Below are positions 12,964-42,286 of a stretch of DNA of 64,000 nt, in pieces (position 1 is the first letter of the stretch; each line of letters opens with the position of its first letter). A program made the position numbers and the translations under genes. The notes beneath the pieces are model-generated. The model searched no databases, had not been told where the DNA came from, and worked only from the letters and a program-made list of their open reading frames with translations. Source of the stretch: Quinella sp. 2Q5 (GTDB lineage: Bacteria; Bacillota; Negativicutes; Selenomonadales; Selenomonadaceae). The stretch lies in contig JADEZQ010000011.1 in NCBI GenBank assembly GCA_015206785.1, positions 543 to 64,542 on the forward strand, given 5' to 3'.

Positions 12964-13833
12964 ATGGCGGAAAAAAATTTTTGTCTGCGACCAAAATATC
13001 TCGACGGCTTCAAATGCGACGGCGCGGCGTGCGGGGCTTTGTGCTGTCGGAATGCGTGGAGAATCGCCGTGGACGCGGCAACCTACCAAAAATATTTGCG
13101 GCTCGGTCACGAAGTCACGCGGCACCTGCGCGCTGATGAGTCGGGCGAAAAATATTTCATCGTGCATTCCGACGCTTGCCCCTTCCTGACGGCGGACAAC
13201 ATGTGCGGCTTGCAACGGGCTCACGGCGAAGATTATCTGTCGCCCGTGTGCGACGGCTATCCGCGAATCGTCACGCGCTTCGAAAATTTTTTGGAGGTCG
13301 CGCTCTCGTTGACGTGCCCAATCGCCGCCCGCCTCGTGCTGTTGCAGACCGAGCCGCTCGTGTTCGAGCTGACGGAGCCATCGGAAAAAATTTTGCGCCG
13401 CGAAGCCAACACCACCTTGCAGGGCGTGCCGCGCGACCTGGCGCCGACAATGGTCGAGGTTCAGCTGGCAATGGTCGAAATTCTGCAGACGCGGCGGCTG
13501 ACACTCCACGAACGATTCGCACGGCTGAAAGACTTTTTGGCACCCGACGCCCCGTTGACGACCGAGAGTCTGCCGAAAAAATCATTGCCCGCCGAATTCG
13601 CGACGGTCGCCGAAAATTTTCTGGTCAACGAAATCTTCCTGAACGTGTGGCCATTCCGACTGGACGCCACTGTCGCAGAAAACTTCCGAGCGTTCGCGGC
13701 AGCGTACAAAATTTTCGAGCGTCAAACACTCACCGCGCGGACAGTCGACGAGCTGTTGACGGCGGCGGGCAAAGTCAGCCGCCTAATCGATCACGACGAA
13801 GACTATCTGCAACGACAACTCGTCACCCGTTGA
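12964..13833 (+). CDS. Cysteine-cluster protein, FliB (flagellin lysine-N-methylase)/YkgJ-like
   Basis: N-terminal FKCDGAACGALCCRNAWRIAVD and a later ACPFL, NMCGL pattern typical of the CxxCxxCC zinc/iron-chelating family. The last 7 codons and the stop lie inside the interspersed repeat. Confidence 0.55.
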   Translation: MAEKNFCLRPKYLDGFKCDGAACGALCCRNAWRIAVDAATYQKYLRLGHEVTRHLRADESGEKYFIVHSDACPFLTADNMCGLQRAHGEDYLSPVCDGYPRIVTRFENFLEVALSLTCPIAARLVLLQTEPLVFELTEPSEKILRREANTTLQGVPRDLAPTMVEVQLAMVEILQTRRLTLHERFARLKDFLAPDAPLTTESLPKKSLPAEFATVAENFLVNEIFLNVWPFRLDATVAENFRAFAAAYKIFERQTLTARTVDELLTAAGKVSRLIDHDEDYLQRQLVTR

Positions 13834-14017
13834 AGTGAGCGACAACTCGTCACCCGTTTCGGGTAGCGATAACACGGTCGCCCATGGATGGGCGACCGCC
13901 GGCATACGACGACGTGATGCGTCGTTGCCGGCTCGGAGGTCCTTTCTTTTTGCTACTTTTTCTTTGGACCAGCAAAGAAAAAGTAGATCCTAATCGCAAA
14001 GAAAAAGTAGATTCTAA
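13813..14017 (+). repeat. Interspersed structured repeat, copy 1 (with internal partial duplications)
   Basis: Shares GGYCGCCCA-NGGA-TGGGCGRCC, CCGGCATACGACGACGTGATGCGTCGTTGCCGG and CTCGGAGGTCC plus a T/C-rich hairpin with copies at about 57645-57795 (reverse) and 61835-61985. Also carries a 19-nt direct repeat at 13813-13831 and 13840-13858, and a duplicated 3' arm at 13972-14017. Confidence 0.85.
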
Positions 14018-29698: not shown

Positions 29699-31567
29699 TC
29701 AATCGCTGATGTCTTCGCCGCGATATCTGGCGACGGACGCGCAATCTTTGTCGCCGCGGCCGCTGAGTGTGATGACGATGATTTTGTCGCGGCTCATGGT
29801 CGGGGCAAGCTTGAGGACGTGTGCGACGGCGTGTGCGGATTCAATCGCGGGGATAATGCCTTCGGTGCGCGAGAGGTATTCAAATGCGTCGACAGCCTCG
29901 GCGTCGGTGACGGGGACGTATTCGGCGCGACCGATGTCGTGCAGGTGAGCGTGTTCGGGACCGATGCCGGGATAGTCCAACCCCGCGCTGATGGAATAGA
30001 CCGGCGCGATTTGACCGTAGGCGTCTTGGCAGAAGTAAGACTTCATGCCGTGAAAAATTCCCGTGCGCCCCGTGGCAATCGTCGCGGCAGTCTCGAAGGT
30101 ATCAACGCCACGCCCCGCCGCCTCGCAACCGATTAGTCGAACGCTTTTGTCGCCGATGAAGTCGTAGAACGTGCCGATTGAGTTTGAGCCGCCGCCCACG
30201 CAAGCCGTCACCACATCCGGCAGACGGCCTTCCACCTCGCGCAGCTGACGTTTGATTTCGCGCCCGATGACGGCTTGGAAGTCGCGAACAATCGTCGGGA
30301 AGGGGTGCGGTCCCATCACCGAGCCCAGGCAGTAATGCGTGTCGGCAATGCGGTTGGTCCATTCGCGGAAGGTTTCGCTCACGGCGTCTTTGAGGGTGCC
30401 CGTTCCGCTGTCGACGGGGACGACCTTTGCGCCGAGGAGTTTCATGCGGTAAACGTTCAATGCTTGGCGACGCGTGTCCTCCACGCCCATGAAGACGACG
30501 CATTCCATGCCCAGCAGAGCGGCGGCAGTCGCGGTTGCCACGCCGTGCTGACCCGCGCCCGTCTCGGCAATTAGCCGACGCTTGCCCATCTTCTTGGCGA
30601 GCAGTGCCTGACCGAGGACGTTGTTGATTTTGTGCGAGCCCGTGTGATTCAAATCTTCGCGCTTGAGATAAATTTTCGCGCCGCCCAAATCGTCAGTCAT
30701 CTTTCGCGCGAAATACAACAGCGACGGACGACCCGCGTAATTCGTGAACAGCTCATCAAGTTCGCGCTTGAAGGCGTCGTCGTCTTTGAAGCGGTTGTAA
30801 GCGTCTTCAAGCTCAAGCACCGCGTTCATCAGCGTTTCGGGAATGTATTGCCCGCCGTAAATGCCGAAGCGTCCGTTTCGATTCGTCATAAAACTTTCCT
30901 CGCTTACTTCGTGTTTAGGATCTACTCTTTCTTTGCCGGCAATGCGCGGTCGTGTTGACGGCTCAGGCGACGGGTGACGAACGGCTTCGGCGAAGGCTGT
31001 CATTCTGTCAAAATTTTTGCGCCCGTCGACTTCGATGCCGGAGCTCACGTCCACGGCGAACGGTTGAAGCTGTTCAATCGCGTTGCGGACGTTGTCGACC
31101 GTCAAGCCGCCCGCCAGAAAATATTTCCGCGGAAAATTTTTCAGCAACCGCCAATCGAACGTGAGCCCGTCGCCGGCACCCGCATCCAACAGCACGCAAT
31201 CGGCACTGCTGCGAGCCGCCGCCGCCACGTCGTCAATCGTCTGCACCCTGAACGCTTGGATTATTGGCTTGCTCGTCAAAGCGCGAAGACTTTCGATATA
31301 CGCCGCGTCCTCGGAGCCGTGAAGCTGTGCGATGTCGATTGTGCCGAAGTTCAGAAGCTTGCCGACCGCCGCGACGTCAGCATTGACGAAGACTCCGACC
31401 GCGCGAATTTTTTTCGACAATGCGCCGCGAAGTTTGTCCGCCGTGTCGAAGGTGATGCGGCGTCGACTGTTGGGCGCGAAGACGAAACCGACGTACTCAG
31501 GAAAAATTTCGTTGGCGGCAAGGACGTCGTCGAGCGTGCGCAGTCCGCAGAATTTTATCGCCGTCAT
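29699..31567 (-). CDS. trpB: In-frame trpF~trpB ORF: phosphoribosylanthranilate isomerase (N-terminal, about 200 aa), a 28-aa linker, and tryptophan synthase beta
   Basis: Continuous 622-aa ORF. The TrpF part runs MTAIKFCGL to FAEAVRH. The TrpB part starts at [13 protein letters not shown] and has the PLP lysine motif HTGSHKINN. TrpB also keeps its own GAGGAAAG RBS and ATG at 30889. Confidence 0.85.
30911..30945 (-). repeat. Degenerate remnant of the interspersed repeat, forming the trpF-trpB linker
   Basis: Minus strand reads TTGCCGG followed by CAAAGAAAGAGTAGATCCTAAAC. This matches the end of the 12-bp stem-loop plus the 3' arm of copy 1 (1 mismatch), with the middle of the element deleted. 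Confidence 0.6.
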
Positions 31568-32346: not shown

Positions 32347-33359
32347 GAGTTCGACACCTCAACGAACCTGTTCAACGTCGCGGAAGCTTTGCCGCCGTCA
32401 ATCAACGTCGCCGCCAGCTCCACGCCCGCCGCGAAGCTTTGCGCTTTGCCGCCGATATAAAGAGCCGCGCCCGCGTTCATGAGGACAGCGTTGCGTTTGT
32501 GACCGCCCTCGCCGTTGAGAATCGCGCGAGTGATCGCCGCGTTGTCGGAGGGGTCGCCGCCGCGCAGGTCGTCGCGTGTGCAACGGTCGAAGCCAAAATC
32601 TTCGGGCTTGACGACATAATTTTTGATCCAGCCGTCGTTAATCTCGCAAATGGACGTCGGTGCGCTCAATGAAATTTCGTCGAGCTTATCGAGCCCGTAG
32701 ACGACCATGCCGCGCTTGACGCCGAGGCTGACGAGAACTTGAGCCAGCGGCGCAACGAGATACTCCGCATAGACGCCGAGGATTTGCCGCGAAGGTTTGC
32801 CGGGATTCGTCAACGGACCGAGGATGTTGAACACTGTGCGAAAGCCCAGTTCCCGACGAATGGCACCGACGTATTTCATCGACGCGTGATACTTCTGCGC
32901 GAAGAAGAAGCATATGCCGACCGTGTTGAGAAGTTCGCGGCATTTGTCGGGCGATTGGTTGATGTTGACGCCGAGAGCCTCCAGACAGTCCGCGGCACCA
33001 CACTTCGACGAGGCAGCGCGGTTGCCGTGCTTAGCGACCTTGACGCCGCCCGCCGCCGCAATCAGAGCCGCCGTCGTCGAGATGTTGAAGCTGTTGGAAT
33101 TGTCCCCGCCCGTGCCGACAATCTCGAAGACGTCGAGCCCCGTGTCGACCGTCGTGGCATGAGCACGCATCGCCGCCGCGCAGCCTGCAATCTCGTCGGT
33201 AGTCTCTGCGCCCGCGCTCTTCGTCGACAACGCCGACAGAAACGCCGCGTTCTGCGTCGGAGTCGTCTGCCCGCTCATGATCTCGTTCATCACGGCAAAC
33301 GCCTCGTCGTAGCTGAGATCCTCCTTGTTCACGATTTTAACGATGGCCTCTTTAATCAT
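32343..33359 (-). CDS. trpD: Anthranilate phosphoribosyltransferase
   Basis: [10 protein letters not shown] start after AAAGGAG, plus GTGGD and KHGNRA motifs. The listed ORF start at 33650 is an upstream read-through of non-coding DNA. Confidence 0.9.
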
Positions 33360-33401
33360 GGTTGAAACTCCTTTGAAACTTGATGGGGGTAGACCGCGCG
33401 T

Positions 33402-33430
33402 ACTATAACACAGCGCACGCCCCCTTGCAA
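33402..33430 (-). promoter_or_regulatory. Sigma-70-type promoter for trpDCF~B
   Basis: Minus strand reads TTGCAA, 17 nt, TATAGT. The leader is only about 40 nt. Confidence 0.5.
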
Positions 33431-33551
33431 GATTCGTCAATGTCACGCCCGCGCCTAAGCACGCCGTAAAAATTTCTAACCGTAAATTCATGCGCAACGG
33501 CACGATTCGCGTTATAATCTCCTCAGCAACTACGGAAGGCGGCGGATTTTT

Positions 33552-34784
33552 TTGTTTAGGGAAGTCACGAAGATTTTGCTCGGCGTCGCGCTTTTGTCGG
33601 TGATGTCGACGGCGGCGGCGAAAAGTTTGCCCGAAGTCGTCTGGTCGCACGACGTCTACACAATGACCATTGCCGACGATTACGTTTATGCCGACAAACG
33701 CCGCGGCTATCAGCTGCTAAACAGCGGCACGCCCGACGAGCAACAGTTCAACCGCGAAAAAATTTCCCGCGCCATCGACGCCAAGCTCAAGGCTCAAGCA
33801 AAATCTCTGCCGTTCAAATTGAAGACGACCTTCGACGCCAACGACATTGGCGAACGCAACTTCGACTTCAACGACCAAACTGTCGGCGGCGGCGTCATTG
33901 CCCTCGTGCCAATCGTCGTCATTGATTACGCCATAGAAACCGGCTACGTCATCGGCGGGCGCACCTATCACAAGTATCTGCTCGTCTCGGCGTTGGATAT
34001 CGCCTTTTGCAGCGAGGACAGCGACGGCGCGTTGACAATCGTCGGCAACATCCCATTGCACTTCTACGAAACGATTCCGCTGTCGAATTCTCTGGAGGCA
34101 ATGACCGAACGGGACCGCAGTGAACTTGCGCGGCTGTGGACGAATTTCACGGCGCAGATGATTGCAAAGCATCTGGACTTCACCAAGGCACGCAAGGTTC
34201 TGCGCGGCATAGAGACCAAACAGTTCGGCGAGACCTGGCGCGTGGAGAGCGTCGACTACACGTCGCGGACGGCGCGGGAACTTTTGGGCACGAATCGACG
34301 CGGCGAGCCCGTCAAGCTCATGCAACGTATCGCGGGAAATATTTTCACGGCGGACTTTGCCGCGCACACCGGCAACGTCGTCTACCCGATGATTCTTGAC
34401 GGCGACACGTCGAGCTGGACGACCGACGCCGCGCGAGATTTTTACGTCGCCAAGATGACAACGACGCATTCGAACGAGAGGATCATACGCATGCCAACCA
34501 AGGTCGATCACAAAATTTTTCTGGACGTGACGGGCGCGGGCAGCCGCGAGATTGAGACGAAGTACCGCTCCAACATCAACGGCTTCAAGATGTATCGGCT
34601 GTGGATGCGCAGCAAGATTGACGGCAAATCGATTGAGGTCACCAACGACATCATGGAAGAATTTTTTCGCAGCGGCTCTGCGGACAAAATCATCAAGGAC
34701 GACGCGGAAATCTTCGGCGGGCTGATGATTGGTGCCGCCATTAAATCCGCCGCGGCTCAAGCCGGAAAGAGGGTGCCGAAATGA
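33552..34784 (+). CDS. Secreted hypothetical protein A (410 aa)
   Basis: TTG start after GGAAGGCGGCGG. Sec signal peptide [17 protein letters not shown]|KS. No motif recognised. The C-terminus has a weakly hydrophobic segment plus a KRVPK tail. Confidence 0.55.
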
Positions 34785-35923
34785 AAACGTTGCTGAAAAT
34801 TTTTTTGCTGACGTTGACGCTGATGTTGACGTCGTCGGCTCAAGCGCAGGTCGTCACGGGATACGCGCCAATCGTCAACGGCAACATCGACGGCGCACGA
34901 CGCGACGCCCGCAATCGTGCTCTGCGTGAGGCCGTGGAATCGGCGGTCGGTGTCAAAATCCAAAGCACAACCGAGGTCGCGAACATGCTGGTCGTCAAGG
35001 ACGAGATCATCGCGAAGAGCGAAGGCTTCGTCACGATTGACCGCGTTCTGCGCGAAGAAGTTCGCGGCGAAATTTTTTTCATTGAACTCGACGTCACTGC
35101 CTCGGCGGACAGAATCAGAACCTTCGCCCGTGATCTGCGCAGTCAGCTGGAGGCAAACGTCAACGATTCGAATTCGCGCGGCGGCATAATGGTCGCGGTC
35201 GTTCGCAGAAATTCCGACGGCACCTGCAGCTACGACGCGGCGATTGGCGACTACATCAACGACAAGCTCAAGGCAATCGGGCTCAAGCCGTACGTCAACG
35301 ACAGCGTCAACGCCTACATCGCCCGCCACGCCGACGACCCCGACGTTCGCGTCCACGCCCGCACCATCGCCCGCGACAACCGCGAAGCTGAGAACGCTCT
35401 TCTGCGCGGCGTCACCGGCGTCGAGTCCGTGCGCAAGGTTGCCGGTCTGTACGAGGCGACGGTCAACGTGTCGTTCGAGCTGATCGGTCTGGATTCAAGC
35501 GACGTGGACGTTTACACCCGCACCGCTGTCGGCGTCGGCTCTACACGTCAAGCCGCCATCGACAGCGCGAAGGAAGTTGCCGTGCGCGAGGCGATTGACT
35601 CTTTGGCGCGGCAAGCTCTGGAAACTGTTCAGGACGAAACCCGCGGCGGTTACACCAACATCAAGACGACCGTCATCGTCGAGGGCGTCACCGATTACGA
35701 CGCGCAACTGCCGCTGATTCAGTCCGCCTTCGACGCCGCAGGTTGCACCGTCATCCGCATGACAAGACCCGCCGCAACTCGGCTGGCGTTCTTCGTGTCG
35801 AGCATCGACTTCGCCACAGTCAACGACCTGCAAGTCGCGCTGTTGAATTCAATCCCGCACATCAAACTCGGCATCACTCCCGCGGGCGAACACGGCTCCA
35901 CGAAAATCCATCTGACCTTTTGA
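34781..35923 (+). CDS. Secreted protein B with FlgT-N/LPP20-like modules (380 aa)
   Basis: ATGA overlap with A. Signal peptide ends SSAQA|QV. GYAPIVNGNIDGARRDARNRALREAVESAVGVKIQS resembles the FlgT N-terminal/LPP20 fold signature, and a second similar module occurs near GVGSTRQAAIDSAKEVAVREAIDSLARQA. Ends KIHLTF, with alternating hydrophobics and a terminal Phe. Confidence 0.55.
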   Translation: MKTLLKIFLLTLTLMLTSSAQAQVVTGYAPIVNGNIDGARRDARNRALREAVESAVGVKIQSTTEVANMLVVKDEIIAKSEGFVTIDRVLREEVRGEIFFIELDVTASADRIRTFARDLRSQLEANVNDSNSRGGIMVAVVRRNSDGTCSYDAAIGDYINDKLKAIGLKPYVNDSVNAYIARHADDPDVRVHARTIARDNREAENALLRGVTGVESVRKVAGLYEATVNVSFELIGLDSSDVDVYTRTAVGVGSTRQAAIDSAKEVAVREAIDSLARQALETVQDETRGGYTNIKTTVIVEGVTDYDAQLPLIQSAFDAAGCTVIRMTRPAATRLAFFVSSIDFATVNDLQVALLNSIPHIKLGITPAGEHGSTKIHLTF

Positions 35924-35932
35924 GGCGACACC

Positions 35933-36775
35933 ATGAAAAAATTTTTTCTGCTGACGATTATGCTGGCGGTGCTGACGTTGACGGCTCACGTTGCCGCGCA
36001 GGGCATCGCTTCCGGCGGCAGAGGCTCAACCGAAGTCGCCGCGGTCGAAGACATGAAGCTCACCGCCATCAAACGCGCACTGGCTCACCTGACTGCACGC
36101 AACGACGATCCCGCTTCGCCCTATCAACAGTTGCTGGCGGGCTACAGGAATTTCGTCGGCTCCGTCAAAATTTCCAAGCGCGGCAAAAATTCTCGCGGCG
36201 TCGTCGTCACCGGCACCGTCGAGATCAAATACGACGAGCTGCGTGCTCAATTCGGTCGGCTCATCAAAAATTCTCACGGCTCCGACATCACCCGCGAGGT
36301 CTACGTTTTCGTTCGCGTCGTCGGCGACATCACCGAGGCTCAACGTCGCGCGGCGGAAGAAATCATTCTGCAACGATATATGACGCGGCTGACGGAAAAT
36401 CGTTTCGTCGTGGCTGATGCGGACGAAGTCATCGGCGAACTTAGTCAGACGCGTGCAATGACCTTCGACGAGTTCGTCGCGTTCGTCGGGCGCAAAACCA
36501 TCGAGAACCCCGCCATCTGCACGGCAATCGTCGGCGAGCTGAAGCTCTCGCCCGTTGCCGCGGACGCCGACGGATTCACCGCCGCCTGCACCATGACGAT
36601 TCGCGCGGTGGATTGTCTGCGCGGCTTCATGACGATTGACGCGAGCGACGGCAGCGAAGTCCTGCGCATGAAAACTTTCGAGCGCATAGAAAATTTCCTC
36701 TGCGAGAAGGCGGCGGTTGCCTCCTCCAAGACCGTGACCGACAGCCTCGTTCGTCATTGGGCGGGGCAAATTTAG
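35933..36775 (+). CDS. Secreted hypothetical protein C (280 aa), weakly LPP20-like
   Basis: Signal peptide MKKFFLLTIMLAVLTLTAHVAA|QG. The mature N-terminus GRGSTEVAAVEDMKLTAIKRALAHL resembles the same module as protein B. Confidence 0.5.
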   Translation: MKKFFLLTIMLAVLTLTAHVAAQGIASGGRGSTEVAAVEDMKLTAIKRALAHLTARNDDPASPYQQLLAGYRNFVGSVKISKRGKNSRGVVVTGTVEIKYDELRAQFGRLIKNSHGSDITREVYVFVRVVGDITEAQRRAAEEIILQRYMTRLTENRFVVADADEVIGELSQTRAMTFDEFVAFVGRKTIENPAICTAIVGELKLSPVAADADGFTAACTMTIRAVDCLRGFMTIDASDGSEVLRMKTFERIENFLCEKAAVASSKTVTDSLVRHWAGQI

Positions 36776-36784
36776 GAGGCGAGC

Positions 36785-37498
36785 TTGATGAAAAATTTTC
36801 CCAAACGATTCGCGACGTGGCTGGTCGTGCTGACGGTGGCGTTCGGAATTTCTGCCGAGCCGCGTGCCGAAGCCTTGAGCCTGAGCGATTGGGCGAACAT
36901 CTTCGGCGTGGGCGGCCGCGATATCGAAAAGTCCAAGCAGCGCATGATGAAGAACTTCAACTACTCGACGGCTCTGCTTGCCGCCGCATACGAAAACGTT
37001 CGCATTGCCACCGACGACACCATCGCCAACAAAGAACTCATCACGCAGGAACAGGCGACGCGCGCCGCGTTGAGAACTTCCGACGGCGGCACGAAGCTCA
37101 AGAACGGTGCCGAACAAAATCGCCGCGACGCCGAGAACATCCGCCGATATCTTTCCGCGGCAATGACCGAGGGCGACGAGGAGAAGCTCAAACGAATCGA
37201 CGCCTTCATCGAGACCGCAAACAGCCAGCGCAATCTTTCGGACTTCATGGCGGGCATCGCCTACGCGCAGATCGGGTTGATAACCGTCAACAAGTTCACC
37301 AACGTTTTTTCGGGCAACTTCAGCGACCTCGACGACCTCATCGCCACCACGCAGGAAGTCGACGGCATGTTGAAGGTTCGCGGAGAACTCAGTGACCTGC
37401 TCAAGACTGCGACGGCGGAATATCGTCTCAACCGCGGCATCAAAGATCCCAGCCGTGAGGAACAGCAACGTACCGCCGACCAAATCGAAAAGGGCTGA
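36785..37498 (+). CDS. Secreted helical hypothetical protein D (237 aa)
   Basis: GGAGG RBS and a signal peptide (FATWLVVLTVAFGISAEPRAEA). The rest is predicted all-helical and charged. Confidence 0.5.
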   Translation: MMKNFPKRFATWLVVLTVAFGISAEPRAEALSLSDWANIFGVGGRDIEKSKQRMMKNFNYSTALLAAAYENVRIATDDTIANKELITQEQATRAALRTSDGGTKLKNGAEQNRRDAENIRRYLSAAMTEGDEEKLKRIDAFIETANSQRNLSDFMAGIAYAQIGLITVNKFTNVFSGNFSDLDDLIATTQEVDGMLKVRGELSDLLKTATAEYRLNRGIKDPSREEQQRTADQIEKG

Positions 37499-37506
37499 CC
37501 GCAATC

Positions 37507-37547
37507 AAAAAGCGCATCTCCGAATTGGGGACGCGCTAATTTTTTTG
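37507..37547. terminator. Bidirectional intrinsic terminator
   Basis: GCGCATCTCC-GAATT-GGGGACGCGC hairpin flanked by AAAAA upstream and TAATTTTTTT downstream. It ends both the four-gene operon (+) and the methylmalonyl-CoA operon (-). Confidence 0.7.
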
Positions 37548-37558
37548 CGGATGATATA

Positions 37559-37951
37559 TCAGCCGAGGATGACCATCGATTCGTGAGCCTTGACGGACTG
37601 CCCCGCCGCGACGTTGAATTTCTTGACGGTGCCGTCGGCGTCGGCGGTGATCTCGTTCTGCATCTTCATAGCTTCGAGAATCAGCAGGACATCGCCCGCT
37701 TTGACAGCCTGACCTTCAGCCGCGACGAGCTTAACGACTTTGCCGGGCATGGGCGCATCGATTGAGTGTTCGCCCGCGCCGGCCGCAACTTTGGGAGCAG
37801 CAGCCGGAGCCGCCTTCGGTGCGGGGGCAGGAGCAGCTTTCGGTGCGGGAGCGGGAGCCGCCTTCGGTGCCGAGCCGGCAGCTTTGACTTCCTCGACTTC
37901 AACTTCGTAGGTCGTGCCGTTCACGGTGACGTTAAATTTTTTAGTTGCCAT
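37559..37951 (-). CDS. Biotin carboxyl carrier subunit (methylmalonyl-CoA decarboxylase gamma / transcarboxylase 1.3S type)
   Basis: C-terminal biotinyl domain with EAMKMQNEI and an Ala-Pro-Lys-rich linker. Confidence 0.85.
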
Positions 37952-37972
37952 TGAATGAATACCTCCGATATA

Positions 37973-38110
37973 TCAGCGATTGATTTTGGACGCGAGAGCC
38001 CAGTTGTCGTTGCGTTTGACGGTGACGGCGACGATCTTTGCCGCGCCGCCGCAGACGGACTGAATGGCAGCGGTTATTGCCGCGACGATTTCGGGTGTAA
38101 CTTTAGCCAC
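37973..38110 (-). CDS. Possible 45-aa small subunit of the carboxyltransferase complex
   Basis: Not in the ORF track. GTG follows TAAGGAGGAATCACC. Sequence is MAKVTPEIVAAITAAIQSVCGGAAKIVAVTVKRNDNWALASKINR. The position and the EIVAAITAAI motif resemble the small subunits of the biotin decarboxylase/transcarboxylase family. Confidence 0.5.
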   Translation of the reverse strand: MAKVTPEIVAAITAAIQSVCGGAAKIVAVTVKRNDNWALASKINR

Positions 38111-38122
38111 GGTGATTCCTCC

Positions 38123-39652
38123 TTAGAGCGGGATGTTGCCGTGCTTTTTGGCGGGACCGACTTCGCGTTTGCTTGCCAGAGCGTTGAGGGCGGTGATGAT
38201 GAGCGGACGAGTTTCCTTCGGCTCGATGACCATGTCGGCATAACCGCGCTCGGCGGCTTTGTAGGGAGTGGCAAACTCTTCGACGTATTCGGCGGTCTTC
38301 TGCTCCTTGTCGGGGTCTTTGCGGAAGATGATGTTCGCCGCGCCCGCCGGACCCATAACGGCGATTTCAGCGGACGGCCACGCCATAACCTGATCGGCAC
38401 CGAGTTCGCGGCAGCACATTGCGATATACGAACCGCCGTAAGCTTTGCGGGTGATGACGGTGACTTTCGGGACGGTCGCCTCGCTGTAGGCGTACAACAT
38501 CTTCGCGCCGTGGCGAATGATGCCGTTGTATTCTTGGTCGACGCCGGGCAGGAAGCCTGGCACGTCAACCAAATTCACGAGCGGCAGATTGAAGGCGTCG
38601 CAGAACCTGATGAACCGCGCGGATTTGTCGGAAGCGTCAACGTCCAAGCAACCCGCCATAACCGCCGGCTGATTGGCGATGATACCGACGGAGCGTCCGC
38701 CGAAGCGCGCGAAGCAGGTGATGATGTTCGTTGCGAAATGCTGATGAACTTCGTAGAACTCGCCGTCGTCGACAATCATGCGGATGACGTCTTTCATGTC
38801 GTAAGGCGCGTTGGGGTTGTCGGGGATAATCGTGTTCAGCTCTTCGTCCTGACGGTCGGGGTCGTCGTCGGTTTCAACGAGCGGCGCGTCTTCCAGATTA
38901 TTCGACGGCAGGAAGCTGAGCAGGTAACGAATCTGCTTGATGCAATCTTCCTCGTCTTCCGCCGCGAAATGAGCGACGCCGCTGCGAGTGTTATGCGTCA
39001 TTGCGCCGCCGAGCTCTTCAGCGGTGACTTCTTCGGCAGTGACGGATTTGATGACGGCAGGACCTGTGATGAACATCTGGCTGGTTTTCTTGACCATGTA
39101 GATGAAGTCGGTGATGGCGGGGGAATAAACTGCACCGCCCGCGCAGGGTCCCATGATGACGGAGATTTGCGGAATGACGCCACTGGCGGCGGTGTTGCGG
39201 AAGAAAATGCCCGCGTAGCCGCTGAGCGCGTCGACTGCCTCTTGAATGCGTGCGCCGCCGGAATCGTTAATGCCGATGAGCGGTGCGCCCATCTTCATTG
39301 CGAGATCCATGACCTTCCAAATTTTGTGCGCGTGCTTTTCGCCCAGGGAGCCGCCTTCGACGGTGAAATCCTGCGCGAAAGCATAGACCAGCCGCCCGTC
39401 GACGGTGCCGTAACCGGTGACGACGCCTTCGCCGGGAAGTTCCTTCTTGTCCTGACCGAAATTGGTGCAACGATGTTTAACGAACATGTCCAGCTCGGTG
39501 AAGGTGCCCTCGTCAAAGAACATGTTGATGCGTTCGCGGGCAGTCATCTTGCCCTTTTCGTGCTGCTTATCGATTCTTGCCTGTCCGCCGCCTTGAAGAA
39601 TCTTGTCCTTCTTGGCGTGCATCAAGGCGATTTTCTCTTGAACTGTAGCCAT
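38123..39652 (-). CDS. Methylmalonyl-CoA carboxyltransferase (decarboxylase alpha / 12S-type subunit)
   Basis: 509 aa with full-length similarity in motif pattern to acyl-CoA carboxyltransferase beta-type proteins (GGARIQE, MGPCAGGAVYSPA, ITRKAYGG). Confidence 0.9.
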   Translation of the reverse strand: MATVQEKIALMHAKKDKILQGGGQARIDKQHEKGKMTARERINMFFDEGTFTELDMFVKHRCTNFGQDKKELPGEGVVTGYGTVDGRLVYAFAQDFTVEGGSLGEKHAHKIWKVMDLAMKMGAPLIGINDSGGARIQEAVDALSGYAGIFFRNTAASGVIPQISVIMGPCAGGAVYSPAITDFIYMVKKTSQMFITGPAVIKSVTAEEVTAEELGGAMTHNTRSGVAHFAAEDEEDCIKQIRYLLSFLPSNNLEDAPLVETDDDPDRQDEELNTIIPDNPNAPYDMKDVIRMIVDDGEFYEVHQHFATNIITCFARFGGRSVGIIANQPAVMAGCLDVDASDKSARFIRFCDAFNLPLVNLVDVPGFLPGVDQEYNGIIRHGAKMLYAYSEATVPKVTVITRKAYGGSYIAMCCRELGADQVMAWPSAEIAVMGPAGAANIIFRKDPDKEQKTAEYVEEFATPYKAAERGYADMVIEPKETRPLIITALNALASKREVGPAKKHGNIPL

Positions 39653-39682
39653 CTAATCGCTCCTTTGTATGGTCGGTCGTGC

Positions 39683-40099
39683 TCACTTAATCGGTTGGCA
39701 AAGTTCGAGCAAGACGCCGTGGGTTGCTTTCGGGTGAATGAAGGCGATCATCTTGTTGCCGGCACCCTTGCGCGGTTTCTCGTCGATGAGCTTGACGCCC
39801 TTTTCCTTGAGGTCAGCCAACGCCGCTTCCAAATCGTCCACGAGCAGGGCGATGTGCTGAATGCCGCCGCGCCCGCCGTTCTTCTCGATGAACTTGGCAA
39901 TCGGGCTGCTCTCTTCTGTGGCGACGAGGAGCTCAATCTCGCTGCCGTTGGGTGTGGGATAAAAGCCCGTGGTGACTTTCTGGTCGGCAACGGTTTCTTC
40001 GCCGACGGACGCCAAGCCGAGCGTCTCCCAGAACGCGCCGACTTCTTTGAGGTCTTTGACGGCAATGCCGATGTGATCTACGCCGAGAACTTTAAACAT
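39683..40099 (-). CDS. Methylmalonyl-CoA epimerase (VOC family)
   Basis: MFKVLGVDHIGIAVKDL, GGIQHIAL and HGVLLEL motifs. ATG 40099 follows GGGAGGG. Confidence 0.85.
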   Translation of the reverse strand: MFKVLGVDHIGIAVKDLKEVGAFWETLGLASVGEETVADQKVTTGFYPTPNGSEIELLVATEESSPIAKFIEKNGGRGGIQHIALLVDDLEAALADLKEKGVKLIDEKPRKGAGNKMIAFIHPKATHGVLLELCQPIK

Positions 40100-40125
40100 T
40101 GAAAACCCTCCCAAAATGTTGTCGC

Positions 40126-40728
40126 TCAAACTTCGCGGAAAACTTTTACGCGCACGCCCGTCGGCACTTTCTCAATCGGTTGCGGTTCTTCGAGCTTTTC
40201 ACCGAAGACCATCTGCGCGACGAGATCCCAGCTGTCTGGCAGGGCAAAGATTTGCTTGATGGGTTCGTCGATGAGCGGGTTGTAATGTTGCAGGTTGACG
40301 CCGAGCCCCATTTCCTCCAGTGCCGTCCAGATGGCGAACTGCAACATGCCGTTGGCTTGCATTGCCCACGTCGGCATATTGGCGGCGTATTCGGATATCT
40401 GCTCTTGCATGGCTTGAATCATGTTGCTGGACTCGAAGAACAGAATCGTGCCGTAAGCCTTCTCGAAGCCTTCGATTTTCTTTTCGAGAACGGCGAATCT
40501 GTCTGCGGGCAAAATTTTCTTGAGTTCGCCCTTGGTGATGTGCCAAACGTTTTCGTGGTGGTCGAGCATGGTCACGACGACGCGAGCCGATTGCATGTTG
40601 AACGGCGAAGGCGCGTCTTTGGTCATGCGTTCGACGGCGGCGATGATTTGCGACTGAAGCACGGGGATATTTCTGCCGAGCTTGTAGACGGAGCGGCGTG
40701 CCGTCACTGCCTCTTGAAATGTTTTCAT
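40126..40728 (-). CDS. Nitroreductase-family protein
   Basis: AVTARRSVYKL, APSPFNMQSARVVV and other nitroreductase motifs. Confidence 0.75.
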   Translation of the reverse strand: MKTFQEAVTARRSVYKLGRNIPVLQSQIIAAVERMTKDAPSPFNMQSARVVVTMLDHHENVWHITKGELKKILPADRFAVLEKKIEGFEKAYGTILFFESSNMIQAMQEQISEYAANMPTWAMQANGMLQFAIWTALEEMGLGVNLQHYNPLIDEPIKQIFALPDSWDLVAQMVFGEKLEEPQPIEKVPTGVRVKVFREV

Positions 40729-42230
40729 TTGCGCATGTCTCCTGTCTCAATGAAGCGCGTATGGAAGCTCAACGCCTCGTTCAGAAGGTGCGGAGTGGCA
40801 GCCTTCTTCGTGGCGGCAAGAGCGCGTTCATAATAATCCAAAAGCAACGGGCGATAGTCGGGGTGAGCGCATTTGTTGATGACTTCCAAAGCACGGCGAC
40901 GAGGTTCAAGCCCGCGCAGGTCGGCGATGCCGTATTCGCTGATGATGACGTCGACGTCGTGTTCGGTGTGGTCGATATGCGAGCACATGGGAACGACGGA
41001 ACTGATCTTGCCGCCCTTGGCTGTGGAGGGCGTGTAGAAAATCGTCAGGTAAGCGTTGCGCGCGAAGTCTCCGCTGCCGCCGATGCCGTTCATCATTTTG
41101 GTGCCGGTGACGTGTGTGGAATTGATGTTGCCGTAGATGTCGACTTCAAGGGCGGTGTTCATTGCGATGACGCCGAGGCGATGGACGACTTCGGGCGAGT
41201 TGGAAATTTCTTCGGGGCGAAGCAGGATATACTTGCGGTACTTGTCGATGCCCGCGTAGAAACGATCCATGCCTGCGGGCGACGGGCTGAACGCCGTGCC
41301 GCTTGCGAACTTGAGCTTGCCCGCGTCGATGAGGTCGAGCATTGCGTCCTGAATGACTTCGGTGTAAACGATGAGGTCACTCATATCGCCTTCGACGAAA
41401 CCTTCGAGCACCGCGTTAGCGACATTGCCAACGCCCGATTGCAGAGGCAACAGTCCCTTGGGCATGCGACCGGCTTTGATTTCCGCCTGAAGGAATTCGA
41501 GCGTGAACTGCGCCATTTTCTTGGAGTTCTCGTCAATGGGCGAGAGGTCTCGCGTGTGGTCTTTGATGTCGCAGGGGACGATGAACTTGATCTTGTCGGG
41601 CGTGCAGGGGATGTACGTCGTGCCGATGCGGTCGTCGGCGTGGACGATGGGAATTGGCAGACGGTTGGGCGGGTCAAGCGGGACGTAAACGTCGTGCATG
41701 CCTTCGAGTTCCAAAGGCTGAGTGGTGTTGACTTCGACGACGACGGTATCAGCGTTCTGCACGTAGCTTGCCGCGTTGCCCAATGAAGTCGTCGGAATGA
41801 GATTGCCCTCTTCGGTGATGGCGCACGCCTCAACCAGCGCGAAGTTCAGCGTCTTCTTGATGAAGCCCGTGCGCGCGAGCTGAGCCGATTCGCTCAGGTG
41901 CAGGTCGAGGTAGTTGACGGTGCCGTCGTTGATTTCGGGGCGAAGCTTGCTGTCGGTCTGATACGGCAGACGCTGTTTGATGCCGCGGACTTCGGCAAGT
42001 GCGCCGTCAAGTTCGGGTCCGGTTGATGCGCCCGTCCAAATGTTTACCTGGAACGGATCTTTCTTCATGCGTTCTGCCAAAGCGAGCGGCACTGCCTTCG
42101 GGTATGCCGACGCCGTGAACCCGCTGCAAGCAATCGTCCAGTCAGGCTCAATCCAATTGGCAACTTCCTCCGCGCTGACGATTTTGCCGAGCAAATCTTT
42201 GTTGCGCACTCTGTCGGTGATATCGATCAT
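40725..42230 (-). CDS. Succinate/propionyl-CoA CoA-transferase (acetyl-CoA hydrolase/transferase family)
   Basis: About 500 aa with family motifs (CSGFTASAYPKAVP, GGSGDF). ATG 42230 follows AAAGGAGG. Confidence 0.85.
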   Translation of the reverse strand: MIDITDRVRNKDLLGKIVSAEEVANWIEPDWTIACSGFTASAYPKAVPLALAERMKKDPFQVNIWTGASTGPELDGALAEVRGIKQRLPYQTDSKLRPEINDGTVNYLDLHLSESAQLARTGFIKKTLNFALVEACAITEEGNLIPTTSLGNAASYVQNADTVVVEVNTTQPLELEGMHDVYVPLDPPNRLPIPIVHADDRIGTTYIPCTPDKIKFIVPCDIKDHTRDLSPIDENSKKMAQFTLEFLQAEIKAGRMPKGLLPLQSGVGNVANAVLEGFVEGDMSDLIVYTEVIQDAMLDLIDAGKLKFASGTAFSPSPAGMDRFYAGIDKYRKYILLRPEEISNSPEVVHRLGVIAMNTALEVDIYGNINSTHVTGTKMMNGIGGSGDFARNAYLTIFYTPSTAKGGKISSVVPMCSHIDHTEHDVDVIISEYGIADLRGLEPRRRALEVINKCAHPDYRPLLLDYYERALAATKKAATPHLLNEALSFHTRFIETGDMRK

Positions 42231-42286
42231 TGAAATCCTCCTTTGCATAATCGGCGGTTATTGTTGAGCGTAAATCGATTTATTCA

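Follow-up and report, generated by a model that had tools for sequence, protein, structure and literature searches.

A conserved cluster of four exported proteins with FlgP/FlgT-type modules in Negativicutes, candidate core of a periplasmic scaffold

In the debate on the origin and loss of the outer membrane, diderm Firmicutes have a central place, and little of their periplasmic architecture is known. Here, we describe four consecutive genes, denominated A, B, C and D, in a stretch of 64,000 nucleotides from Quinella sp. 2Q5 (Selenomonadaceae, Negativicutes; contig JADEZQ010000011.1), the whole of which is called the window throughout. These genes encode proteins with export signals, one of which is related in sequence to the flagellar ring proteins FlgP and FlgT, and they are found together in about 15 distinct genomic contexts. 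We suggest that A–D are the core of a stand-alone, Sec-exported periplasmic ring, disk or lattice scaffold under the outer membrane of these diderm Firmicutes, with a probability of roughly 0.45. The module itself is genuine, clearly delimited and conserved, and it is relevant to how the envelope evolved in this group. All four genes are located on the plus strand:

33552-34784, plus strand: gene A, 410 aa, TTG start, exported, new family
34781-35923, plus strand: gene B, 380 aa, ATG start, exported, four α/β modules
34853-35095, plus strand: FlgT_N/FlgP-like SHS2 module of B, residues 25-105, from Pfam and PDB profile searches
35933-36775, plus strand: gene C, 280 aa, ATG start, exported, remote paralogue of B as judged by profile comparison
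36785-37498, plus strand: gene D, 237 aa with the TTG start (236 aa if read from the ATG at 36788), exported

An ATGA is common to the end of A and the start of B, gaps of 9 nt each separate B from C and C from D, and a purine-rich ribosome-binding site precedes every start (GGAAGG at 33534-33539 for A). The true start of D may be the ATG one codon downstream. Protein B is 100 % identical to NCBI entry SR2Q5_05320. A previous inspection of the letters alone (the sequence-only reading) had proposed that the genes form a translationally coupled operon and that their products are exported and apparently lack enzymatic function; this is supported, and the lengths, the overlap and both gaps are as it had given them.

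Signal peptides were judged by a heuristic (charge of the n-region, hydrophobicity of the h-region, residues at -3/-1) and not by a dedicated predictor. It was applied to 19 proteins, namely A–D and 15 orthologous or associated ones (including the partners E and F, see below) from three other loci. All 19 show a positive n-region, an h-region with a Kyte–Doolittle value above 2.1 over 10 residues and small residues at -3/-1, and in none of them did the scan detect a lipobox or a second transmembrane-like helix. The Sec-type signal peptides without lipobox cysteine that had been noticed before were thus recovered for all four proteins. Absence of a lipobox from all 19 proteins fits the reported absence of LolA/LolB homologues from every Negativicutes genome analysed (PMC5007114).

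Of the four, protein B alone matches a curated family. Its residues 25-105 match Pfam FlgT_N (PF16548) with E 1.2e-7 and 32.5 bits versus a gathering score of 28.8, while no LPP20 match is reported in the same search; FlgT_M and FlgT_C give no match at E up to 1. This confirms the FlgT_N/LPP20-type module that had been recognised at the mature N-terminus of B, and the sequence quoted for it was correct. Searches in NCBIfam, PADLOC and PHROGs gave no match. In the PDB the profile of B matches residues 74-167 of chain C of 9HMF (E 1.9e-7) with small gaps only and none across the insert described below, and the profile of its first module reaches Vibrio FlgP (E 0.0096). Entry 9HMF is a model of the periplasmic motor scaffold of Campylobacter jejuni (PMC12222027). 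Its chain C, which occurs there in three copies as a “Lipoprotein, putative” of 171 aa, is most likely FlgP, fitting the FlgP trimer described in that paper. FlgP, Lpp20 and FlgT share an SHS2-like fold; in FlgP every disk ring has a continuous sheet that is built by an insert between the helix and strand 2, and within the family the formation of rings goes along with this helix-to-strand-2 insert (PMC12222027). The flagellar disk protein FlgP is the only solved protein matched by sequence to the module shared by B and E, and the match runs across the ring-forming insert; neither the B nor the E profile matches Helicobacter pylori Lpp20 (5OK8) or Vibrio FlgT.

Residues ~57-83 of B (nt 34949-35029) align with the insert of FlgP. 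They are highly conserved (G57, V58, S62, E65, V72, D74, G82, Y83) and have a predicted local distance difference test score (pLDDT) below 50 in the monomer model, the lowest in module 1, so that a hairpin conformation of this segment remains putative. A segment that is most conserved and yet least confident in a monomer model is what would be expected of an interface element. From the FlgP alignment through the insert together with conservation and low monomer confidence of this segment we infer that B may oligomerise.

The AlphaFold2 model of B, built with 22 family members, has a pLDDT of 78.6 and comprises four α/β modules (~20-130, 135-200, 204-285 and 294-380). Foldseek against the PDB retrieves GNA1162/DUF799, XCC0632/PqiC, the CsgG pre-pore, CT253, LptE and Lpp20 (5ok8, probability 0.98), i.e. 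a single fold class; Vibrio FlgT (3W1E) is neither among the top 50 structural matches nor among the PDB profile matches of B. The repetition of a module within B, as proposed by the sequence-only reading, has weak sequence support only: modules 1 and 3 are related at a marginal E 0.003 in a helix-only match (hhalign). Its second suggestion, that the terminal KIHLTF is an outer-membrane β-signal, had to be abandoned. The motif is present, but the model contains soluble modules and no barrel, and the last strand (375-379) closes a ferredoxin-like β-α-β-β-α-β module. The terminal aromatic residue is not conserved among orthologues, several of which extend past the motif (...FKGGA, ...FNGGA, ...FVGGASG) or end in L or Y.

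Protein C is a remote paralogue of B: hhalign aligns its residues 30-228 collinearly with residues 32-239 of B, i.e. with the first three modules of B, at a probability of 91.9 % (E 6.9e-7). The weaker version of the module formerly suspected in C is borne out by this comparison. C has no Pfam or PDB sequence match and adjoins B in all loci that extend far enough. D is Gly-rich after the signal peptide and then charged and rich in helix-forming residues (49 %); composition and hydrophobic periodicity hint at helicity, the periodicity test being poorly calibrated on B (63 % vs 54 %). No Pfam or PDB match and no relatives outside these clusters were detected for D. Pfam scans of the individual proteins in families A and D gave no consistent weak family, PDB profile searches with A, C and D yielded nothing significant, and A–D have no match to the CsgG domain (PF03783). 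A, C and D are therefore undescribed families without Pfam or NCBIfam model. As had been assumed, Pfam, NCBIfam, PADLOC, PHROGs and PDB profile searches assign A–D to no characterised system. A reading as defence system or phage genes was discarded in view of the missing PADLOC and PHROGs matches, core-genome flanks and even GC content.

Protein A has neither a Pfam nor an NCBIfam match, and none of its 44 homologue clusters contains a Pfam domain. Its AlphaFold2 model (pLDDT 81.8, predicted template modelling (TM) score 0.82) consists of two halves, both made up of helices and three long strands; hhalign shows no relationship between them. Foldseek matches are LptE (4nhr), Cj1090c (7rxu), HpaA (8t8d), PqiC, CsgG and PelC, with TM scores of ~0.4-0.48 on the target. 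Even the best of them, the LptE proteins, are weak (TM 0.44-0.48 on the target, root-mean-square deviation 6-7 Å, 8-11 % identity). The models of A and B thus match only the LptE/CsgG/PqiC/GNA1162/HpaA/Lpp20/PelC fold class.

These folds raise a transport reading, according to which A and B/C would be periplasmic plugs, caps or adaptors of an outer-membrane channel (e.g., of the CsgG family) serving polymer export or handling of lipids or lipopolysaccharide (LPS). We consider it improbable. It draws on the best structural matches of A (LptE, Cj1090c, PqiC) and on the CsgG pre-pore and PqiC among those of B, and also on a CsgG-family gene that adjoins relatives of B in two loci of other phyla (L026 and L032) and stands in the same array in a third locus (L033). 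These fold matches are weak, and hhalign finds no relationship of A to B, C, E or CsgG-like proteins; compared with the CsgG-like neighbours in L026 and L032, all of A, B, C and D remain at a probability of ≤1.2 %. Neither the operon in the window nor the checked neighbours contain a CsgG-family, β-barrel, ATP-binding cassette (ABC) or MCE gene. A census of neighbours (Pfam domains of 105 neighbouring genes from 19 loci, complemented by the Pfam lists of 12 loci with precomputed annotation) was also performed, and among its 105 genes no substrate gene such as an amyloid subunit or a polysaccharide synthase is conserved nearby. Exported proteases of the clostripain family (Peptidase_C11) adjoin the cluster in three loci, including L024 (10495-12372) and L025 (2316-4226). 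They may be maturation proteases and, for a transport system, could point to processing of substrate or subunits.

The second line of evidence is conservation of the cluster. One genome per species (~185,000) was scanned with conserved peptides of B, a procedure that needs exact pattern matches and gives a lower bound. It returned at least 14 loci, all from uncultured ruminant-gut Selenomonadaceae or Selenomonadales. An exhaustive search of 1.84 billion representatives with a hidden Markov model (HMM) of the B family gave 4,294 hits at E ≤ 0.001, 578 at ≤ 1e-10 and 52 at ≤ 1e-30. About 40 distinct clusters at 50 % identity are matched over near-full length, and the named members belong to Selenomonadaceae or Selenomonas metagenome-assembled genomes (MAGs) plus one Acidaminococcales MAG. 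A metagenome scan with alignment A2 gave four short loci only. The A family is found only in a narrow set of Negativicutes, and conservation of the families A–D at the protein level extends to 21-40 % identity. All four occur together in every locus long enough to hold them (~15 distinct contexts), L033 being a partial exception since the 268-aa gene in the position of D stays below the threshold of the D profile. D-family HMM matches are present in L023, L024, L025, L020 and L028 at varying positions of the cluster. Three gene orders exist, and the flanks are unrelated housekeeping genes that differ between loci. With the genes of distant loci assigned by family HMMs, the arrangements are as follows:

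Window, L001, L005, L008-L013 and similar loci, Quinella-like clade: A-B-C-D(-E-F)
L023, Acidaminococcales MAG: E-D-E'-A-B-C, C carrying a fused RCC1 β-propeller
L024: D'-D-A-B-C-E-E-C', then Peptidase_C11 and a Sel1 protein
L025: Peptidase_C11, then D-A-B-C
L020, Selenomonas sp. MAG: D-A-B-C-E
L028: D-A-B-C-E-F
L033, abundant Selenomonas sp. MAG: [FlgT_N+CsgG protein]-276-202-418-CAP-268-A-B-C-E

The four genes could in principle lack any joint function, being chance neighbours or mis-called open reading frames in GC-rich DNA. Long antisense frames do exist over A (33717-34760, minus strand, 347 aa) and over C–D (36026-37504, minus strand, 492 aa), probably as artefacts of the 58 % GC, and with such spurious frames in the region the length of a frame alone is weak evidence. 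Translational coupling, the paralogy of B and C and the conservation of all four families, which stay clustered in three different arrangements and in two orders of Negativicutes, speak for a joint function, and the synteny data effectively refute unrelated neighbours, leaving this explanation with a negligible likelihood. Co-occurrence outside this genome, on which the proposal of a candidate system depended, is well documented by the ~15 contexts.

Several of these loci show peculiarities. In L033 (355-5736) six co-oriented genes precede A-B-C-E, namely FlgT_N+CsgG, three genes for 276, 202 and 418 aa, a CAP-domain gene and the 268-aa gene; a CAP gene also adjoins the cluster in L028. The fusion of a C-family protein to RCC1 repeats in L023 (11190-13103, 637 aa) suggests, at the level of domain architecture, that C is able to carry a binding domain. 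In L018 (3752-5582) gene A is preceded by a second, divergent F'-E' pair (37-39 % identical to F and E); this contig comes from the same MAG as L016, where E-F stand after D. The outer membrane of Selenomonas is anchored by cadaverine on peptidoglycan. In L021 (7572-9890) the cluster directly follows genes for lysine/ornithine decarboxylase and spermidine synthase, and a link of these polyamine genes to cadaverine tethering was considered. The arrangement is restricted to the L021/L022 lineage and is thus probably a coincidence.

Most loci add gene E after A–D and many also add F. E is an exported protein of ~290 aa with an LPP20 domain (PF02169, 32.5 bits vs 25.9) and an extra C-terminal domain, while F is exported and has about seven TPR repeats. 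The LPP20 domain of E is related to module 1 of B at a probability of 95.9 % (hhalign), and its profile matches 9hmf_C with E 4.4e-19 and Vibrio FlgP with E 4.3e-9. The C-terminal domain of E (residues ~185-290 of the protein encoded at 10903-11781 in L001) matches 5jir_B, an “OOP family OmpA-OmpF porin”, with E 7e-4, and E-like proteins from other phyla retain this domain. In the 64-kb window tblastn detected neither E nor F, so that this locus has lost E or the genome keeps it elsewhere.

Beyond Negativicutes a B-like protein of ~390 aa is encoded in three loci, each time directly after an E-like protein that is matched over both E domains:

L026, metagenome contig: E-B, then a CsgG-family gene
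L032, Bacillota MAG: E-B, then a gene with CsgG, LpoB and FlgT_C matches; a DUF4384+PEGA gene ~3 kb away (13116-13952)
L031, Candidatus Kuenenia: E-B without adjacent CsgG gene; a TPR+DUF4384 gene nearby and ExbB/ExbD upstream

The CsgG-like neighbours in other phyla match FlgT_M or FlgT_C. In L031 (1497-13454) the E-B pair follows a run of exported unknown proteins, ExbB/ExbD and a TPR lipoprotein. A literature search turned up no paper naming both DUF4384 and CsgG. Since E-B is shared with other phyla and the families A, C and D are not detectable in L026, L031 and L032, E-B(-CsgG) gives the impression of an old core, to which A, C and D were apparently added as an elaboration in Negativicutes. 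The view of a self-contained module of four genes, put forward by the sequence-only reading, has to be corrected accordingly: most relatives add E and many F, in one Selenomonas lineage the array also contains a FlgT_N+CsgG gene, and it is E-B, not A–D, that crosses phyla.

From these data the following picture of the scaffold may be drawn. B would oligomerise through the FlgP-type insert of its N-terminal module to an arc, ring or sheet, and E would do likewise in most relatives. C, as a truncated paralogue of B, and A could add further layers, while D, plus the TPR protein F where present, might serve as linkers. The end product would be a stand-alone scaffold under the outer membrane, descended from the cross-phylum E-B(-CsgG) module. 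In its favour are the operon anatomy, the export signals without lipobox in all 19 proteins, the lack of any match to an enzyme, defence or phage family (Pfam, NCBIfam, PADLOC, PHROGs), the domain identities and predicted folds, the FlgP-disk matches of B and E across the insert, the co-occurrence of A–D in ~15 contexts with unrelated flanks, the E-B pair of other phyla, and a gene context that nowhere ties the cluster to the flagellum. The data show gene structure, heuristically assigned export signals, domain identities, paralogy, predicted folds and conserved co-occurrence; that A–D oligomerise, are located at the outer membrane and have a structural role is proposed.

Several points weigh against this proposal. 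Ring formation by B is extrapolated by analogy from FlgP, export of A–D relies on the heuristic call of signal peptides, and the Foldseek matches of the A and B models are weak and at domain level (TM 0.4-0.5 on the target, root-mean-square deviation 6-8 Å). E, the most FlgP-like component and a member of the putative old pair, is missing from this locus and from the window, and the copy described here may be reduced or differently organised. Finally, the sole experimentally characterised sequence relatives of the B/E module are flagellar, which favours an accessory of the flagellar motor.

Such an accessory would mean that A–D (with E and F) form a basal-disk- or H-ring-like scaffold around the LP-rings in Quinella-type Selenomonadaceae, resembling FlgP/FlgQ/PflA/PflB of Campylobacter or FlgT/FlgP/FlgO/MotX of Vibrio, which would stabilise or widen the stator ring as an aid to swimming in the viscous fluid of the rumen. 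We rate this as the foremost alternative, though an unlikely one. All significant characterised matches of the B/E module are flagellar disk or ring proteins (FlgT_N, 9hmf_C, Vibrio FlgP), and the aligned stretch takes in the ring-forming insert. The fuller system adds the TPR protein F, as in known motor scaffolds with their TPR-type parts PflA/PflB/MotX, and the motor accessory genes of Campylobacter are likewise not known to lie in flagellar operons. Moreover, an almost full set of flagellar components, MotA/MotB included, is encoded in the Quinella bins (PMC9585023). However, no flagellar family recurs in the census of 105 neighbouring genes and none is present in the Pfam lists of the 12 annotated loci. 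Upstream of A mostly hexamers of sigma-70 type are seen; a sigma-28/SigD motif is not conserved in 15 loci, the search for it giving one weak match that is common to two copies of the same contig. No cultured flagellated Selenomonas is among the at least 14 carriers that the pattern scan found in ~185,000 species genomes. Furthermore, neither FlgT_M nor FlgT_C is present in B, and FlgT (3W1E) is missing from its top 50 structural matches and from its profile matches. MotX/MotY are absent from Quinella (PMC9585023), and the LPP20-fold protein HP1456 of H. pylori is dispensable for flagella and motility (PMC11756786).

Ranked by probability, the stand-alone scaffold is followed by the flagellar accessory and this by an accessory of a channel or transport system. 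The scaffold proposal can also be phrased in a broader form. E-B(-CsgG) together with A, C, D and F of Negativicutes would then be an unrecognised, flagellum-independent periplasmic ring or disk organelle that occurs across phyla and is built by FlgP-type polymerisation, with flagellar disks and H-rings as a co-opted branch, and with soluble subunits and three new families in the Lol-less Negativicutes. This extended form is speculative, and we hold it for somewhat more doubtful than the flagellar accessory.

The surroundings of the genes in the window are metabolic. Two flanking elements delimit the operon:

33360-33551, no strand assigned: divergent intergenic region between trpD and gene A, from promoter scan and direct reading
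37511-37546, no strand assigned: bidirectional intrinsic terminator, a hairpin with U-run on both strands, common to D and the convergent biotin-carrier gene

Upstream and divergent from A are trpD (start at 33359), trpC and a fused trpF-trpB, the latter as a single open reading frame of 622 aa (29699-31567, minus strand) with a TrpF PRAI domain (5-194) and a TrpB PALP domain (280-603). The promoter scan finds a sigma-70-like site for the trp genes on the minus strand (33430-33402), in line with the divergence from a trp promoter that had been noticed. For gene A in the window, direct reading gives a candidate -10-like TATAAT on the plus strand (33513-33518) without good -35, which the scan did not call. 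Most orthologous loci show clear sigma-70-type hexamers upstream of A. The bidirectional terminator was described as strong from the beginning, and folding of 37499-37550 agrees with this (ΔG -23.7 kcal/mol, z -4.4 on the plus strand; -24.6 kcal/mol, z -5.2 on the minus strand; 0/200 shuffles as good; a U-run after the hairpin on each strand). A simple terminator scan gave no call at this site 3' of D, and an Rfam search of 33000-38000 revealed no RNA. The biotin-carrier gene (37559-37951, minus strand), convergent with D, belongs to a cluster (37559-42248, minus strand) for biotin carrier, carboxyltransferase, glyoxalase-type epimerase and acetyl-CoA hydrolase/transferase. This cluster is consistent with the methylmalonyl-CoA/propionate pathway, the metabolism proposed for Quinella (PMC9585023). 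Flagellar, secretion-system or CsgG genes are absent from the checked neighbours in the window (trp side upstream, biotin carrier to CoA-transferase downstream), as had been stated before.

The relevance of this cluster depends partly on which explanation will prevail. In any case, three undescribed families (A, C, D) are tied to modules of the FlgP/FlgT type, whose sole job known to us is polymerisation into large periplasmic rings, and folds that elsewhere are outer-membrane lipoproteins occur here without lipid anchors in a lineage without Lol. If the system is flagellar, Negativicutes would have their first described elaboration of a motor scaffold, and a third independent way of arriving at such scaffolds would be known. 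If it is not, the FlgP/FlgT/CsgG toolkit would build stand-alone envelope structures across phyla, which would shed light on the origin of flagellar disks. The carriers are uncultured rumen bacteria, and the finding is for now a well-defined target with inferred function.

In comparison with known systems, A–D are set outside the FlgT, FlgP, CsgG and LptE families by at least one defining feature each. FlgP (LPP20 family, PF02169) forms the basal disk in Campylobacter and is an H-ring-associated protein in Vibrio. Module 1 of B and, more strongly, the N-terminal domain of E are its sequence homologues including the insert, and both proteins share periplasmic export with it; in contrast, FlgP is a single-domain lipoprotein of ~140-170 aa whereas B has 380 aa, four modules and no lipobox. 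FlgT of the Vibrio H-ring (FlgT_N, FlgT_M and FlgT_C; 3W1E) resembles B in its FlgT_N domain, multi-domain architecture and periplasmic location, and differs in the two further domains and in the lack of a structure or profile match; its partners MotX/MotY are those reported as absent from the Quinella bins (PMC9585023). With H. pylori Lpp20 (HP1456), encoded in an operon of small exported proteins or lipoproteins, the SHS2-type fold class is shared, whereas operon content and protein sizes differ and there is no sequence-profile match to 5OK8. Flagella and motility stay normal when HP1456 is deleted (PMC11756786), which makes it an earlier example of a family member without flagellar role. 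The likeness to CsgG, LptE, PqiC, GNA1162 (DUF799) and PelC is at fold level only and restricted to the models of A and B (probability up to 1.0, TM ~0.4-0.5). Proteins of this class are located at the periplasmic face of the outer membrane and tend to form rings or plugs. A–D differ from them by the lack of sequence relationship, lipobox and cognate partners (LptD, CsgA/B/E/F, PqiAB, Pel genes). As regards CsgG, neither the neighbourhood in the window nor the neighbour census contains curli or other substrate or accessory genes; as regards LptE, a single-domain lipoprotein that is near-universal in LPS diderms is opposed to the two-module, 410-aa protein A of narrow phyletic range. Taken together, the closest likeness in the way the system works is to the ring formers of the FlgP/FlgT/CsgG class near the outer membrane.

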